Origin: a virus
Taxonomy: Duplodnaviria > Caudoviricetes
Strand: one strand, 5' to 3'
Virus record (IMG/VR): IMGVR_UViG_3300027971_004105
Length of the DNA stretch: 64,000 bases
Below, piece by piece: positions 8,865 through 38,940 of the stretch. Under the pieces are notes generated by a model. It did no database searches and had not been told where the DNA came from. It worked only from the letters and a program-made list of their open reading frames with translations. Every line of letters starts with the position of its first letter. Positions within the stretch are counted from its first letter, which is position 1. A program made the translations under genes and the position numbers.

Positions 8865-10478
8865 GTGGCAATTGTATCATTAAGCAGAATTCAAGTACGC
8901 AGAGGACAAGCAGGTGCTGGTTCAGGCATACCTCAACTGGCAGGTGGTGAGCTTGGCTGGGCCATGGACACTCAAGAATTATTCATTGGAAATGGATCAG
9001 TGGCAGAAGGCGCTCCCTCAGTGGGCAATACCAAACTGCTCACAGAACACGACAATTTATTTGAACTCAGCAGTCAATACATCTACGGTAACGAAACGGT
9101 TGTGCAGACAGGCGCGTCATCAGGATCACCCATTCAACGCACACTGAAACAGAGATTGGATGACACAGTGAGTGTGAGAGCATTTGGTGCTGAAGGATCA
9201 GGCAGCAATGAAGTGATAGAACTTCAAAGAGCCATTGATCAATTGTATGTGAATGCTGCCACAGTGGGAAACCCACAGAGCAGAATTCAATTGCTCATAC
9301 CCGCAGGCACATATTCCATCAATGCCAGTTTAAAAATTCCACCATTCACCACACTGATTGGAGACGGCAGTGACAAGACCATCATCACACAGACTGCAAA
9401 TTTTCCAGTGTTTGAAACAGTGAATGGTTTGAGAACTCCTGGAGTGGCCGGCAATAGAGCAGCCACAACCACATTGAATCAAGCACGTCATATCACCATC
9501 AAAGGCATGACACTGAACATCACTGGCAACAATCCAGCCATCCTAGTGGACAACTGTGTGAACAGTGATTTTGAAGATATTAAAATTGGTGGAGATTGGA
9601 GCACCAGCGCTTCTTACACAGATAATTTTGCCATCAAGATGGTAGCTATCAGCAGCACAGTGACCACTGCCAACAACAATTTTAAAAGTATTAAAATTAA
9701 TGAATTTCAACAAGCTGTGCATTCTGATTACGATGTTGCAGAAAATCATTTTGAAAACTGTATGTTTCAAAATTGTCAGTATGGCATAGTGTTTGGAGAA
9801 AATACTGTGTTGGGATCACCTGGACAAAATACAGCTCCTTTCAATAACACAGTGAGCAAATCACAATTCATAGATATCAATCGTCAGGGCATATGGGTTC
9901 GCAAAGGCAAAGGCAATAAAAGCATCAGCAACAGTTTTGAAAGCGTGGGCAATGATGGAGGCACAGAAGCCAATGCTGTGTACAGTGTGATTAAATTTGA
10001 AACTATGGAAAATGCTTCACACAATGATTATTTTGATCGTACTAAAAAATTATCCACTGAAAGTGCCTACACATTGTCTGCAGCCTATGTGCCAGAGATT
10101 CAAGGGTATGTGGACAATACCAACACATTTTCATTGAGTATCAACGTGGGATATTCAGTGGGATTTACCAATTCATTCAGATTGCCAGCAGACATCACCA
10201 AGAGTTATGTGGTGTATTATCTTTACAAGAGCACCTATGTGAACGCAGTGAGACACGGCACTTTGGAAATCACTGTGAACAAAAACAACAACACCACCAG
10301 TCTCACAGACACATATGATTATGTGGGGGATTCAACCTACAGTACCAATTTGGATTTCAACGTGATATTATCTGACATCAATGCTGATACTCAGATAGAC
10401 ACTGTGTTGGTTCAAACCAAAGATAGCACACTGAATGACGCTGGAACCATTCTTTTTCAAGTCAAGGTCAAATCCTAA
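8865..10478 (+). CDS. Tail/virion protein with Mtd-N-like N-terminus and pectin-lyase-like beta-helix
   Basis: RIQVRRG...GELGWAMDTQELFIG; SVRAFGAEG...LQRAID...IPAGTY; GTG start with AGGAG. Confidence 0.65.
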   Translation: MAIVSLSRIQVRRGQAGAGSGIPQLAGGELGWAMDTQELFIGNGSVAEGAPSVGNTKLLTEHDNLFELSSQYIYGNETVVQTGASSGSPIQRTLKQRLDDTVSVRAFGAEGSGSNEVIELQRAIDQLYVNAATVGNPQSRIQLLIPAGTYSINASLKIPPFTTLIGDGSDKTIITQTANFPVFETVNGLRTPGVAGNRAATTTLNQARHITIKGMTLNITGNNPAILVDNCVNSDFEDIKIGGDWSTSASYTDNFAIKMVAISSTVTTANNNFKSIKINEFQQAVHSDYDVAENHFENCMFQNCQYGIVFGENTVLGSPGQNTAPFNNTVSKSQFIDINRQGIWVRKGKGNKSISNSFESVGNDGGTEANAVYSVIKFETMENASHNDYFDRTKKLSTESAYTLSAAYVPEIQGYVDNTNTFSLSINVGYSVGFTNSFRLPADITKSYVVYYLYKSTYVNAVRHGTLEITVNKNNNTTSLTDTYDYVGDSTYSTNLDFNVILSDINADTQIDTVLVQTKDSTLNDAGTILFQVKVKS

Positions 10479-10917
10479 ACCTCAAATATTTTTTGGTGAT
10501 TACACTGAACGTTTGATCTGTTGGAGACAGTTTAGAGACTACTTGGAAAAATCCACACAACCTTTGCAGGACATCACACAGTTGTATAGACTGTGTCCAC
10601 TCACACACACCAAAACAAACTTTTTTGACAGAGTCACTTGGCCACAGGCTTGGAATTTGATAGAAAAAAATGATTACAACAATGTGGATAGACTGTTGGG
10701 CATGTGGTACACACTGAGATTGACTGACAGATTTGCCCGCAGCAACATTGATTTGTTACAATGCATGGAAAAGAATCCAAATCCTGTGGATAAAAAACAT
10801 TTCAGTCTGGCATTGGCATTGGATGATCAATATTGCGTGGTGGAAAATTCTGCCATTTTATTGAAAAAAGAGTTTGACAATCAATACATTTCGCAATATA
10901 CTTACTTTAACTTATAA
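10435..10917 (+). CDS. Hypothetical protein
   Basis: 160-aa ORF filling the gap before nrdA; start uncertain. Confidence 0.6.
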   Translation: MTLEPFFFKSRSNPKPQIFFGDYTERLICWRQFRDYLEKSTQPLQDITQLYRLCPLTHTKTNFFDRVTWPQAWNLIEKNDYNNVDRLLGMWYTLRLTDRFARSNIDLLQCMEKNPNPVDKKHFSLALALDDQYCVVENSAILLKKEFDNQYISQYTYFNL

Positions 10918-16389: not shown

Positions 16390-16471
16390 TCCATACATAG
16401 ATCCAAAATCTACCCGTGGCACAATAGAATCATCTATTGACAATCATCATTGAATATGTTTAAATACTGAT

Positions 16472-16800
16472 GTAGGCGATGAAGTGATTGTAATAATCAT
16501 ATAGGACTCGGCTCGATGCCGACACCTCCACCAAATTCGCTCACGTAAAACATAATGATGTTATGCTTCACGGGGGTGAAATGTTTCGACTAGTGATGAA
16601 AAGATCATGGAGTTTACCAGTGAGGGCTCTGTAAAGGCTCAAATTTACAAATGCTAACAAGCGTTTCGTATCAGAAGTAACAATTCCTGCTAACTTTTTA
16701 GTTGGCTCGGAATTGATGGCAGCCTAAGAACCTGCAACTTCGGAGAGTGATCACACTTGGCAACAGAACGTGATCAGTGGTGGGAGGCAACTCCCACCAT
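16472..16800 (+). ncRNA. ssrA: Circularly permuted two-piece tmRNA
   Basis: Acceptor piece ending CACCTCC-A-CCA (16533) precedes GGGGGTG (16572) with a G3-U70 pair; pk1 at 16621-16649; tag ORF 16653-16727 ending MAA-stop; TGGCAACAGAA at 16758; terminal GCAA hairpin. Confidence 0.9.
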
Positions 16801-34624: not shown

Positions 34625-35209
34625 ATGTTTGTAATAGGCAACGGTGAAAGTCGAAAGCACATAAACCTCGACAAAATTAATCAAACCAAGATAGGCTGCA
34701 ATGCTGTGTTTAGAGATTGGCAAATGGATCATCTAGTTTGTTGTGATCGCAAGATGGTGTTGGAAGCTCTGCATGAAACCAATCCAGACCTTACCAAAAT
34801 ACACACCAGAGCTGAATATATCAGTATGGATTCAAGATTGAGTTGTGTGCCAGATTTGCCTTATGAGAGCAAACTGAGACAGGATCAACCCATTCATTGG
34901 GGCAGTGGTCCTTATGCTGTGCTGTTGGCCATAAAACTTATTCATTCCGATGAAACCATCCACCTGTTGGGATTTGATCTATATGGCACCGGAGAGAGAA
35001 TCAATAATGTGTACAAAGACAGTGTGGGTTATAAAAAATCGCATGAAAGAGCAGTGGATCCTAGATATTGGATACATCAGTTGCACCAGTTGTTTGAATT
35101 GCATCCAAACATAAAATTTGTGATGCATGTGACAGAATCTTTCGTCAAACCCACTGAATGGCATCATACCAATTTAGAATATCAGAGCTTGACAATGCTG
35201 CGGCAATAA
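34625..35209 (+). CDS. DUF115/GT29-like nucleotide-sugar-binding protein
   Basis: VIGNGESR, GCN, SGPYAVLLA, LLGFD. Confidence 0.5.
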   Translation: MFVIGNGESRKHINLDKINQTKIGCNAVFRDWQMDHLVCCDRKMVLEALHETNPDLTKIHTRAEYISMDSRLSCVPDLPYESKLRQDQPIHWGSGPYAVLLAIKLIHSDETIHLLGFDLYGTGERINNVYKDSVGYKKSHERAVDPRYWIHQLHQLFELHPNIKFVMHVTESFVKPTEWHHTNLEYQSLTMLRQ

Positions 35210-35228
35210 TGTAATAATATATGATGTT

Positions 35229-35313
35229 TGTAATTTATGACAATTACACATAGAGGACTTGGTATAATCCCTCTTTAAAAATTCTTCTACCATATTAAAC
35301 AATAGGAGATAAT
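35229..35313 (+). promoter_or_regulatory. Candidate preQ1-I-like riboswitch leader
   Basis: P0 hairpin, P1 AGAGG/CCUCU, P2 UGGUA/UACCA, A-rich L3, anti-SD UCUUCUA/UAGGAGA. Confidence 0.5.
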
Positions 35314-35841
35314 ATGGTGAAATATTACAGTACAAAAACATACGGCAACGACCGAGGTTTGAGTTGTTGTTTTAGACAGTGGCAGAGCACTCATTCACAC
35401 TGTTCTTTGCTGCATGGTTACAGCATAGGTATTAAATTAACTTTTGAATCAGAGACTCTGGATGATCGCAATTGGGTCATGGACTTTGGTGGATTGAAAG
35501 CATTCAAAGAATGGAGTGAACACATGTTTGATCACACATTGGTGGTGGCTGAAAATGATCCACACCTAGACAAATTTAAAGCATTGGCAGCATTGGGATT
35601 AAATTCAGTGGGCGGCATCTGTGATCTACGCATAGTGCCAGCAGTGGGCTGTGAAAAATTCAGCGAGTTGGTTTACAATGAGATGAACAAGATATTGAAA
35701 ACTTTTCAGTCAGGCAAGACTTACAAGTTGCCCAACGGTAAAGGATTTGATTGCAGGTATCCTGTGGGTCAAGGAGTCAAATTGCATTCAGTGGAAGTGT
35801 TTGAACACGCAGGGAATTCGGCCATATATCAAGCACAATAA
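35314..35841 (+). CDS. queD: 6-pyruvoyl-tetrahydropterin synthase / QueD family
   Basis: HSHCSLLHGY, WVMDFGGLK, FDH, C-terminal VEVFEH. Confidence 0.85.
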   Translation: MVKYYSTKTYGNDRGLSCCFRQWQSTHSHCSLLHGYSIGIKLTFESETLDDRNWVMDFGGLKAFKEWSEHMFDHTLVVAENDPHLDKFKALAALGLNSVGGICDLRIVPAVGCEKFSELVYNEMNKILKTFQSGKTYKLPNGKGFDCRYPVGQGVKLHSVEVFEHAGNSAIYQAQ

Positions 35842-35853
35842 ATACTCCTGACC

Positions 35854-36558
35854 ATGTCTAACAATTATGTGTTGTGTCTCAAACACGGCAACAAATACAG
35901 TGCTGAATATGTGAATGTGTTAAAAAAAATGACACAACGCAATCTCACAGTGGCACATGAATTTGTGTGTTTCACTGAAGATCCCAAAGGCATAGATCCA
36001 GACATCAGAATATTGCCACTGCCTGCAGTTGTTCTCAAAGGATGGTGGTACAAAACCATGCTGTTCAATCCCCACTTGCCCATACAAGGCACCCTGCTGT
36101 TCATTGATTTGGATGTGATTATTTTTAAAAACATAGACAAATTGTTCACCCACAAGCCTGGAGAATTCTGTGTGTGCAGAGACTTCAACAGATGTTTTCA
36201 ACCCAACTGGCAGAAGATGAACAGTTCAGTGGTGCGTTGGAGCACAGGACAACACCCACAGATTTACAACAATTTTATCAAAGATCCACACACCATCAGC
36301 AAGAGATTTCATGGAGATCAAGACTGGTTGTTTGATCAGGTCAAAAAACACTATCAGTTCTGGCCTGATGAATGGATACAATCCTACAAGTGGGAGATGC
36401 GTGGCAATCCCAAATTGGTGAGACAGAAGACAGGTTTCAAAAACTTCACATCACCTGGTGAGCCCAAAATTAAATCAGACACTGCTGTGGCTGTGTTTCA
36501 CGGTGATCCCAATCCTAGAGAATGCGTGGATCCTTGGTGTCAAACCCATTGGAAATAG
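35854..36558 (+). CDS. GT-A fold glycosyltransferase
   Basis: IDLDV DxD motif, NSSV, GDQDW, AVFHG. Confidence 0.8.
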   Translation: MSNNYVLCLKHGNKYSAEYVNVLKKMTQRNLTVAHEFVCFTEDPKGIDPDIRILPLPAVVLKGWWYKTMLFNPHLPIQGTLLFIDLDVIIFKNIDKLFTHKPGEFCVCRDFNRCFQPNWQKMNSSVVRWSTGQHPQIYNNFIKDPHTISKRFHGDQDWLFDQVKKHYQFWPDEWIQSYKWEMRGNPKLVRQKTGFKNFTSPGEPKIKSDTAVAVFHGDPNPRECVDPWCQTHWK

Positions 36559-36607: not shown

Positions 36608-37660
36608 ATGATCAAAAGAATAGGTTTTTGCTGTCAATGGTTTCATCATGATAGAACTCTTAAAAAGAAACAACTGGAAGAATTAGAACGTCCTTACAAT
36701 ACCAGAGCTACCACTGTGCGTTGGTTGAACGAACACAAGGAACAAGCCGAAGAAAAACTGGCATTTGTGTTCAAACACAACATAGATGGCATCAAGAATT
36801 TAATATTAAAAGTGTCTGAACTGCCTGTGAGCAGAAGAATGTGCAGAATATCATCACCCATACTGCCAGTGGCCACTGAAAACACTTGGAGATACTATTG
36901 GGACAAGCCAGACATAATCAAGTATTGCGAACAACACTTTGCTGAAGCAGGCGATTTGGCTCGCAAACACAATGTTAAAGTATCTTTTCATCCAGGACAA
37001 TTCACGGTGTTGGCATCGGATAATCCAGACATAGTGGAAAGAAGCATAGACGAATTTGAATATCATGTGCGTATGGCGAAAATGATGGGGTTTGGTAAGA
37101 AATGGCAGGATGGTTGTAAAATCAATGTACACATATCAGGTCGTCAAGGTCCAGAAGGTATCATAAAAGCATTGCCTAGATTATCACCTGAAGCACGCAA
37201 TCTTATCACCATAGAGAATGATGAAATGAGTTGGGGATTGGATGCCACACTCCAGTTGGAAAAACATGTGGCATTGGTGCTGGACATACATCATCACCTT
37301 ATACGAGATGAAGAATACATACGTCCCACTGATGACAGAGTCAAAAGAGTCATAGACAGTTGGAGAGGCGTGCGACCCACCATGCATTATTCTTATTTTA
37401 GAGATGAAGCTTTAATGCCAGCATTTGATGCTGACACACAGCACATGATGCATAAAAATATGTTGCCCATGAAAGACTTAATAACGTTGGGCTGTCAAAA
37501 GGTAAAATTGAGATCTCACAGTGATCTGTTGCCCAATGCAGCACACAATGAATGGGCACTGTCATTTTTAGAATGCATGGACATTCAGGTGGAAGCAAAG
37601 GCCAAGAACTTGGCAGCTGAACAACTGCACAATCAGGCACAAGCTCTGGGTCTACTGTAA
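36608..37660 (+). CDS. uvsE: UV-damage endonuclease
   Basis: RIGFCC, SFHPGQFTVL, INVH, TIENDE, LVLDIHHH, RSHSD. Confidence 0.93.
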   Translation: MIKRIGFCCQWFHHDRTLKKKQLEELERPYNTRATTVRWLNEHKEQAEEKLAFVFKHNIDGIKNLILKVSELPVSRRMCRISSPILPVATENTWRYYWDKPDIIKYCEQHFAEAGDLARKHNVKVSFHPGQFTVLASDNPDIVERSIDEFEYHVRMAKMMGFGKKWQDGCKINVHISGRQGPEGIIKALPRLSPEARNLITIENDEMSWGLDATLQLEKHVALVLDIHHHLIRDEEYIRPTDDRVKRVIDSWRGVRPTMHYSYFRDEALMPAFDADTQHMMHKNMLPMKDLITLGCQKVKLRSHSDLLPNAAHNEWALSFLECMDIQVEAKAKNLAAEQLHNQAQALGLL

Positions 37661-37671
37661 TAAATACTGCC

Positions 37672-38241
37672 ATGCAAGACATGAAGCAGTGGATCGAATT
37701 GTTCGAAACCAAACAAAAACGTGAAAAAACCCTAGTGTTGGAAACATTGCCTTATGGCATGGGTGATTTGGATCCTGTGCTGAGCCGTGCCAATGTGGAA
37801 TATCATTATGGAGTATTGAGCCGAGGTTATGTGAATCGATACAACACAGGAGAAGGTGATCCTGATTTCAATTATGGTGGTGCTAAATTGCACAATTTAT
37901 TTTGGGCTCAATTGCAAGCACCCCGAGGCAGCAATCTTCCTCAAGGCACAATAAAAGAATTCATAAACGAACATCATAAAGATTATGACAGTTTTAAAGA
38001 AACGTTACTTTTGACCACTATGAAACTGCAAGGATCTGGATGGGTGTACTTGTCTCGATCAGGAGAGATCAAAACCACTCCCAATCAAACATATCGAACT
38101 GATATTTTAATGCCCATAGATATGTGGGAACATTCATTTATGGATTATGTGCCGGCAAAAGATGCCAAGAAACGCTACATTACAAATATTTTTAAAATAA
38201 TCAATTGGTCTACAATCAACGACCGTTTGAACACAAAATAA
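37672..38241 (+). CDS. sodA: Mn-type superoxide dismutase with N-terminal extension
   Basis: LPY, EYH, HNLFW, QGSGW, NQ, DMWEH. Confidence 0.88.
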   Translation: MQDMKQWIELFETKQKREKTLVLETLPYGMGDLDPVLSRANVEYHYGVLSRGYVNRYNTGEGDPDFNYGGAKLHNLFWAQLQAPRGSNLPQGTIKEFINEHHKDYDSFKETLLLTTMKLQGSGWVYLSRSGEIKTTPNQTYRTDILMPIDMWEHSFMDYVPAKDAKKRYITNIFKIINWSTINDRLNTK

Positions 38242-38529
38242 TCACAATTCATCTATAGGTGTATCACTGCTGACATTCATGTCCAGTATTTTGCGTTGCC
38301 GCACACCTTGTTGCTGTGCAAAACGCTTGGGATCACATGCACCGCACACATGCTTGTAATCATTGCTGATGCGTTTGATGGCTATGCTGCCTTTCTCCCT
38401 TTCAAACAGTGCATTGCAACTGTCACACTGGAACCTATAGTAGGTTTTGTGACGCACACAGGTGTGTTTTGTGCCCAGTTTACTGATGCGTTCAGTAAGA
38501 TGTTGTTTCACAACTTTTTCTAAAAACAT
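38242..38529 (-). CDS. Zinc-ribbon hypothetical protein
   Basis: CDSC and CGAC pairs; TAAATA 7 nt upstream. Confidence 0.75.
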   Translation of the reverse strand: MFLEKVVKQHLTERISKLGTKHTCVRHKTYYRFQCDSCNALFEREKGSIAIKRISNDYKHVCGACDPKRFAQQQGVRQRKILDMNVSSDTPIDEL

Positions 38530-38592
38530 ATACTTGTATTTACATTAGGATTTGTGTTTTTTTAATAAATAATTGAAACAGAACGGAAACAC

Positions 38593-38940
38593 ATGGCTGT
38601 AATCACTGTCACTGAAAGAGCAATCGAAAAGATCAAAGAGTTGTGTCATCACAACAACAAATATGCTGTGAGACTCAGCATCAAAGGTGGTGGGTGTGCA
38701 GGTTATTCCTACGATTGGGGATTTGCTGATCAATCAGAAATTGCACCTGCAGATGAGCTGTTAAACTTTGGCAATGGAGCCAAGTTCACTATAGATGCTG
38801 CCAGTGTGATGTATATTCTAGGCACTGAGTTGGATTATGTGACTGAAGTGTTTGGATCACATTTTGACATTCGCAATCCCAATGCCAAGAGCGCATGTGG
38901 TTGTGGTGAGAGCATCAGTTTTGAAAAGGAGACAGCATAA
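38593..38940 (+). CDS. iscA: A-type Fe-S carrier (IscA/HesB)
   Basis: GGGCAGYSY, LDY, NPNAKSACGCGES. Confidence 0.93.
   Translation: MAVITVTERAIEKIKELCHHNNKYAVRLSIKGGGCAGYSYDWGFADQSEIAPADELLNFGNGAKFTIDAASVMYILGTELDYVTEVFGSHFDIRNPNAKSACGCGESISFEKETA

Follow-up and report, generated by a model that had tools for sequence, protein, structure and literature searches.

The leader of a phage queD gene raises the question of whether a virus may control this gene with a metabolite-sensing RNA and, if so, in which direction. The gene lies in a stretch of 64,000 nucleotides (IMG/VR virus record IMGVR_UViG_3300027971_004105; hereafter the window), and its leader sits between a 218-aa ORF (end 35209) and a 175-aa QueD-like PTPS gene, whose product shares 38–49% identity with annotated phage QueD proteins. 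The original prediction was that a preQ1-I-like H-type pseudoknot in front of queD competes with an anti-SD helix, possibly as an ON-type switch. Here we describe the conservation and covariation of this pseudoknot in leaders of phage queD genes, and we consider it probable that the leader is a phage riboswitch, in which an aptamer with the class I preQ1 fold is joined to a platform wired for translational ON control.

The source phage is large and myovirus-like and comes from lake metagenomes, and the window stretch is present in many lake-water runs. The window encodes, among others, a 2185-aa protein with a T4 gp9/10 N-terminal domain, a DNA ligase, UvdE and a superoxide dismutase. On the 3' side of queD, at 36608–38940 (+), genes for a UvdE UV-endonuclease (36608–37660), an Fe/Mn superoxide dismutase (37672–38241) and an IscA-like Fe-S assembly protein (38593–38940) form a stress/repair auxiliary gene cluster in the phage. 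ARAGORN called no tmRNA and no tRNA in the window; at 16433–16778 (+), where ARAGORN calls none, Rfam placed a permuted (two-piece) tmRNA with RF04321 (83.1 bits) and RF01849 (alpha_tmRNA, 67.9 bits), both of which exceed the gathering score.

Structure and conservation of the pseudoknot

The sequence check located every element of the original prediction in the window copy at its predicted position (Table 1). The core of P2 is formed by TGGTA (35260–64) and TACCA (35288–92), and the P1 3' strand is followed by an A-rich tail, TTAAAAA. The leader of the window gave an MFE z-score of –1.32, and 24 of 200 shuffled sequences folded as well, so that the single copy is indistinguishable from chance. 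Because the window sequence is thermodynamically unremarkable by itself, the case for an RNA element rests on its homologues.

Table 1. Positions of the leader elements and neighboring genes in the window, with the glycosyltransferase-annotated gene also at three other loci
Feature	Position	Strand	Basis or remark
Sigma-70-like promoter, TTGACA, 18 nt, TG-n-AATAAT	35189–35218	+	11/12 matches, TG before –10
P0 hairpin, 7 bp, TGTAATT (35229–35) / AATTACA (35242–48)	35229–35248	+	clade-specific
P1 5' strand, AGAGG	35252–35256	+	covariation at pairs 1 and 3; invariant G-C at pairs 2, 4 and 5
L1, ACU	35257–35259	+	family consensus N-C-U; first position A, C or U
P2 5' strand, UGGUA-U-AA	35260–35267	+	5 core pairs, U.C mismatch, 2 proposed extension pairs
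L2, U-C	35268–35269	+	C35269 at position of class I specificity cytosine
P1 3' strand, CCUCU	35270–35274	+	covariation of P1
L3, UUAAAAAUUC	35275–35284	+	family consensus N-U-A-N-A-N-A-Y-U-C
P2 3' strand, UU-C-UACCA	35285–35292	+	covariation of P2
Sequestering helix, 5' arm, UACCAUAUUA	35288–35297	+	MFE folds, family statistics; overlaps P2 3' strand by 5 nt
Shine-Dalgarno (SD), AGGAG	35304–35308	+	in loop of sequestering hairpin
Sequestering helix, 3' arm, UAAUAUGGUG	35310–35319	+	holds start codon (35314–16) and second codon
QueD-like PTPS gene, 175 aa	35314–35841	+	Pfam PF01242 (1.2e-14); phrog_2389, QueD-like (8e-37)
Glycosyltransferase-annotated gene	35854–36558	+	PHROG match
Glycosyltransferase-annotated gene	L052:3488–4357; L141:699–1607; L321:8058–9050		PHROG match

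P2 probably extends beyond its core to 35260–67 / 35285–92, which would give eight layers and leave only U-C in L2 and 10 nt in L3. The basis of this assignment is one compensatory event, a double change from C-G to A-U in the window clade (TAAT with TCTTC); in the family, the C-A of U-C-A-U is able to pair with the U-G of U-C-U-G-C across the U.C mismatch. The P0 hairpin reads UGUGAU/AUUGCA in the relative L003 and UGCGAU/AUUGCA in the relative L004, with the third pair changing from U-A to C-G; P0 was rejected as a family-wide feature, as it is lacking in other clades.

We obtained 430 QueD relatives in a protein-guided scan of IMG/VR and kept the best 80 of these 430, whose leaders displayed a clear common motif. 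A covariance model built on 27 homologous leaders (alignment A1, R1) detected the motif in 52 of 60 queD loci. When viral contigs were scanned with a gene-blind pattern for the conserved core, at least 120 matches were obtained, and all of the 100 loci tested were found to hold a full model match (38–72 bits). The same pattern gave 120 matches in 185,579 species genomes, but these were mostly due to chance; only five scored well with the model, each of them located on either a short MAG contig or one that carries a phage-type queD. The motif is almost entirely limited to phages, and no bacterial counterpart was found in this genome scan. It precedes QueD-like genes in at least 151 viral or metagenomic loci, which yield 120 unique aptamers, and a QueD-like gene lies immediately downstream in 147 of 150 instances. 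In five related phage records, one copy per record was found, directly upstream of the single PTPS gene. A nucleotide search of the phage collection with the leader region returned no match, and a full-text literature search found no description of the motif.

Among the 120 unique aptamers, P1 has the consensus N-G-N-G-G / C-C-N-C-N. Three canonical types each were observed at pair 1 (A-U, U-A or G-U) and pair 3 (C-G, A-U or U-A), and pairs 4 and 5 are G-C in all 120. The L1 consensus N-C-U is accompanied by 0–6 further nucleotides. The letters of both P2 strands vary across the family; between the P2 5' strand and the P1 3' strand, U-C-A-U is followed by an invariant C, and U-G-C stands directly before the P2 3' strand. 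The nucleotide equivalent to C35269 is C in 120/120 aptamers, and the base before it is U in 91, C in 20 and A in 9. The element UCU(G/U)C is also conserved in 120/120, and the P2 3' strand begins directly after it in 106/120. The unpaired C and the U-A-N-A and UCUGC elements are near-invariant.

Counted from fixed landmarks in the 120 unique aptamers, P2 pairs 1–5 are canonical in 82–92% of cases, with three to six canonical types each, and none of 2000 column shuffles attained the observed values, although shuffle-based statistics, here and below, are inflated by the kinship of the sequences. The count in alignment A3 was 90.1% paired, compared with 81.3% after shuffling, and this count understates P2 because about one third of the sequences in A3 are one column out of P2 register. 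The covariation score in A3 was 0.271 versus 0.118 in shuffled alignments (0/500), and every slid register gave 0.067 or less. A longest-helix permutation for P2 gave a modest margin (4.43 versus 3.91 ± 0.07) because the P2 strands have a common G-N-C core; the per-column test was clearer. Both P1 and P2 covary in the leaders of phage queD homologues, and we regard the existence of a conserved cis-regulatory pseudoknot as almost certain. This element is conserved with compensatory changes in more than 100 uncultured phages and matches no catalogued RNA family.

Two mutually exclusive helices share the P2 3' strand

The MFE structure of the window leader contains P1 together with a helix between ACCAUAUUA (35289–97) and UAAUAUGGU (35310–18), which buries the start codon, and the platform folded by itself forms 10 pairs (35288–97 / 35310–19). 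In 120 of 127 distinct platforms, at least five of the first eight nucleotides of the P2 3' strand pair with the ribosome-binding site (RBS) window; as a control, this number was 93 (maximum 99) when the P2 3' strands were swapped between members and 46 when their letters were shuffled. In 79/127 platforms, all three letters of the AUG pair with the P2 3' strand. The SD window is paired in 44/127, mainly in the clade with CCUAUG/CAUAGG, and neither the SD nor the AUG is paired in two. Four positions of the sequestering helix covary, the second codon among them, and the matching pairs are UGYCAU with AUGGCA, UACCAU with AUGGUR (the window clade) and AAGUCAU with AUGACUU. The start region thus duplicates the P2 5' strand.

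In 123/127 platforms, the sequestering duplex is more stable than P2 (mean –9.6 versus –6.4 kcal/mol). The pseudoknot and the sequestration of the start codon share the P2 3' strand and are therefore mutually exclusive, which implies a translational ON switch. By the generic criteria for a riboswitch, namely a conserved aptamer and an expression-platform structure that is mutually exclusive with it, both features were found. An overlap of no more than 2–3 nt between P2 and the SD hairpin in the CCUAUG/CAUAGG clade, however, counts against the ON reading.

In a large clade that includes L024, L025, L045 and numerous further loci, the platform between P2 and the AUG, CAAACUUGCUAC ... GGAGACUAGAGAUGG, is strongly conserved, and a co-varying sister form, CAAACUUACUC ... 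GGAGGCAAGAGAUGG, was also observed. In the MFE structure, platforms of the L024/L025/L045 type fold into a single long, imperfect hairpin in which the SD and the AUG are both buried.

The competitor of the pseudoknot had been predicted to be an anti-SD helix between TCTTCTA (35283–89) and TAGGAGA (35303–09). This helix is present in the window copy, with seven pairs including one G-U, but it is not kept in close relatives. It was rejected as a conserved mechanism, being lost in the closest relatives (for example, L003 and L011, with a AAAGGUAAAA RBS), and the UCUGC of other clades is unable to pair with GGAG. Its 5' arm, UCU(G/U)C, is a conserved aptamer element. The ON-type logic of the prediction is nevertheless favored by the comparative data, with the start-codon helix in the place of the anti-SD helix as the competitor.

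We further considered where transcription starts. The strong sigma-70-like promoter upstream of the leader, from which a start near 35225 is expected, is kept in the clade relatives L001–L013. In other clades, a sigma-70-like –10 element ends a median of 8 nt before P1, or a T4-late-like TAAATA occurs 5–39 nt before P1, and the two types together cover 90 of 137 distinct upstream regions. As these promoter-like elements lie upstream of P1, the aptamer appears to be placed at the 5' end of the mRNA. The original prediction carried the caveat that TGGTATAAT also reads as an extended –10 promoter. The match at 35260–68 is indeed perfect, although the caveat is weakened by its limitation to the window clade, where the TATAAT is a by-product of P2 and the A-U variant of L2. 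Metatranscriptome contigs from three runs start at 35240, 35243 and 35247 and continue through the aptamer into queD (span 35240–35996), and a fourth RNA-library contig covers 35155–35305. These contigs are weak evidence against a sole start near 35275, in that they do not give true 5' ends, strand or level and may stem from DNA carry-over; bins that lack coverage carry no weight as evidence.

In the mechanism that we favor, the mRNA would start shortly upstream of P1, and P1 (5 bp) and P2 would form an H-type pseudoknot in which C35269 and the A-rich L3 would line a pocket above the closing G-C pair of P1. Alternatively, the P2 3' strand would pair with the start and second codons, which are copies of the P2 5' strand, in a more stable helix, and the AUG would thus be buried in the default state (in other clades, the SD, or both). 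A ligand that locks the pseudoknot would retain the P2 3' strand and free the initiation region, and QueD would then be made. The folding order would fit ON control, as P2 may form before the start region is made.

Relation to preQ1 riboswitches and candidate ligands

In class I preQ1 riboswitches, G5-C18 closes P1, U6 reads the N9-H of the ligand and A30 is located just before the P2 3' strand. The phage motif shares with the preQ1-I family (RF00522, including B. subtilis queC, T. tengcongensis, C. antarcticum and E. coli; types I–III) the H-type pseudoknot, a 5-bp P1 with G-C pairs at its top, a P2 that joins the P1 loop to the 3' tail, an invariant C adjoining the P1 3' strand on its 5' side (with U as the commonest base before this C, as in type I), an A-rich L3 after P1 and a position in the leader of queuosine-precursor genes (queD, sometimes yhhQ). 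However, P2 of the phage motif has 5–7 pairs plus 2, compared with 3–4 in class I, and the first base of L1, at the U6 position, is A, C or U, with the next two, C-U, conserved. Its L3 is A-rich but ends in a conserved Y-U-C and not in A, and the invariant U-G-C follows. In addition, the SD lies outside P2 in the phage motif, whereas class I P2 takes the first SD bases or the terminator and thereby acts as an OFF switch; the phage platform implies ON, and nearly all occurrences of the motif are in phage contigs. The differences from class I listed at the outset (A instead of U after P1, and L3) are real. The motif runs parallel in layout to the class I aptamers of Bsu and Tte, the sequences of which were confirmed in PMC10639078. 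The ligand contacts of class I are the cytosine before the P1 3' strand, U6 in L1 and A30 in L3, with the G5-C pair as the floor, and all described preQ1 riboswitches are of the OFF type (PMC11625349).

The supposed match to class I preQ1 aptamers thus applies to the shared layout and does not extend to membership in RF00522. With Rfam at E ≤ 10, no preQ1-I match was found in the window leader, nor any preQ1-I, -II or -III match in the leaders of the window, L024 and L020, and at the gathering threshold (39 bits for RF00522) no preQ1 family matched at 20 loci. RF00522 also gave no match at the queD leaders of five phage records, with the B. subtilis positive control above the cut-off. From its pattern of conserved nucleotides, the phage motif may work like class I or descend from it, yet by the curated model it is not an RF00522 member. 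The preQ1-II (RF01054) and preQ1-III (RF02680) families resemble the motif in pathway context, and preQ1-III also in having its expression platform at a distance from the binding pocket; both form HLout pseudoknots (80–100 nt) whose conserved cores are different. Other known phage-borne riboswitches, such as the glutamine riboswitches of cyanophages, are copies of bacterial classes, and a riboswitch has reportedly been discussed for a marine methylophage. These are similar to the queD motif as metabolite-sensing leaders before auxiliary metabolic genes, whereas the queD motif had no bacterial counterpart in the genome scan.

We examined the pathway genes that accompany the motif. Four large related phage records of 200–340 kb (G002–G005, the records of L034, L038, L026 and L063) carry FolE, QueD and a QueE-like radical SAM enzyme, and no QueC, TGT/DpdA or YhhQ was found in them; without completion by the host, their pathway would end at 7-carboxy-7-deazaguanine. 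The QueE-like gene (phrog_2076, 2.5e-53), whose best NCBIfam matches are QueE models at scores below their cut-offs, is next after queD in 13 loci. Radical SAM genes are numerous in these phages (up to 11 in each of G002–G005), and a PF04055 scan therefore gave no information on QueE. In the five related phage records, QueC (PF06508), TGT (PF01702) and Vut_1 (PF02592) were not found, and FolE and QueE were not found by tblastn within the window. A gene of the Vut_1/YhhQ family of queuosine-precursor transporters directly follows queD at two loci (L125:4820–5461, 2.7e-22, and L091:10791–11486, 2.4e-27). The commonest gene after queD (54 + 27 loci, and the window) belongs to PHROG families annotated as glycosyltransferase (phrog_1962 and phrog_14945), and no Pfam or NCBIfam match was obtained for it. 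Near FolE and queD in G005 (L321:1399–2920 and 9043–10574), genes for a sugar epimerase/dehydratase, a DegT-type aminotransferase, a subtilase, a HIT protein and several methyltransferases were also observed.

The tie of the motif to 7-deazaguanine and pterin chemistry is firm. A 7-deazaguanine or a pterin is a plausible ligand because related phages carry FolE, QueE-like genes and, in a few cases, YhhQ. If a small molecule binds at all, and binds to the pseudoknotted state, as we infer, the candidates would be heterocycles with a guanine-like face, that is, preQ0, preQ1, CDG or a pterin such as the substrate of QueD. ON control of a biosynthetic gene by its end product would be odd physiology, and therefore either the ligand is not preQ1 or the polarity has been misread. 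The switch would be of the feed-forward kind if the ligand were instead a substrate or an intermediate that presents the same 2-amino-4-oxo face.

Alternative explanations, implications and divergent loci

We compared the favored ON riboswitch with three other explanations. If there were no RNA element, TGGTATAAT would serve as an extended –10 and the complementarities would be due to chance in AT-rich DNA; the perfect match to the promoter element and a single-sequence fold that is no better than shuffles agree with this. We nevertheless assign it a negligible probability, and for the family it is already disfavored: P1 and P2 covary strongly, the fold persists in other clades, whose P2 and L2 letters are quite different and which have no –10 there, and the RNA-library contigs of three runs begin at 35240–47 and cross the site. 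A conventional OFF riboswitch, in which the ligand-stabilized pseudoknot would sterically block the 30S from a short distance, is very unlikely, given that it leaves unexplained a start region that copies the P2 5' strand and, as far as the second codon, covaries with the P2 3' strand, and that the initiation region is unpaired in the pseudoknotted state. Steric blocking is consistent with a report that the C. antarcticum class I aptamer, when moved away from the SD, remains repressive across unstructured spacers of up to 10 nt (PMC10018353), and P2 in the window ends 11 nt before the SD; however, the distance from UCUGC to the AUG is 12–43 nt, mostly about 30, and thus beyond the tested 10 nt. 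Repression of queD and yhhQ by preQ1 would also be the expected physiology under steric OFF control.

It is also conceivable, though unlikely, that the leader switches independently of a ligand, as an operator for a phage or host RNA-binding protein, as an RNA thermometer or as a folding trap that fixes the level or timing of QueD. The alternative helices are shown whereas ligand binding is presumed, the motif is nearly confined to phages, which use protein translational repressors, and it matches no known riboswitch model, all of which would suit such a leader. On the other hand, near-invariant single-stranded nucleotides are found exactly at the positions that hold the ligand in class I, and the motif is strictly tied to one enzyme family of the 7-deazaguanine/pterin pathway; an RNA thermometer, moreover, would not need conserved pseudoknot loops.

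Within the favored ON riboswitch, we tentatively raise the possibility of a new class, nearly restricted to phages and derived from or converging on the class I fold, that would sense a ligand other than preQ1 (such as dihydroneopterin triphosphate, which is the substrate of QueD, the intermediate CDG or a guanine nucleotide). If true, it would be the first natural ON member among preQ1-like pseudoknots, and 7-deazaguanine or pterin synthesis would be under a feed-forward control that evolved in phages. To our knowledge, the described preQ1 riboswitches are all bacterial, and a widespread, phage-specific, inverted relative would mean that phages evolve metabolite sensors of their own and do not only take them on loan from hosts. 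The ligand would reveal what large freshwater phages monitor while expressing FolE, QueD and QueE without QueC or a transglycosylase, and a compact natural ON aptamer of about 45 nt could be used in engineering. The prediction is directly testable with one short RNA and a few purines and pterins.

Some loci carry divergent versions of this arrangement. At L021:2426–3525 and from L222:2503 onward, the first gene after the RNA motif is a second, divergent PTPS-like ORF (about 168 aa) with the motif H-C-N-L-I-H-G-Y, and in L021 the usual queD comes after this ORF. At L247:2015–2071 (–), a 36-bit version of the motif precedes a 151-aa QueD on a contig binned as a marine Rickettsiales MAG; here, the SD lies only 6 nt past P2, and the P1 3' strand and L3 (CUCUCU), rather than P2, are complementary to the SD (GGAGAGA). 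A near-identical copy of this version occurs at L296:4925–4981 (+), and both L247 and L296 are probably phage DNA.
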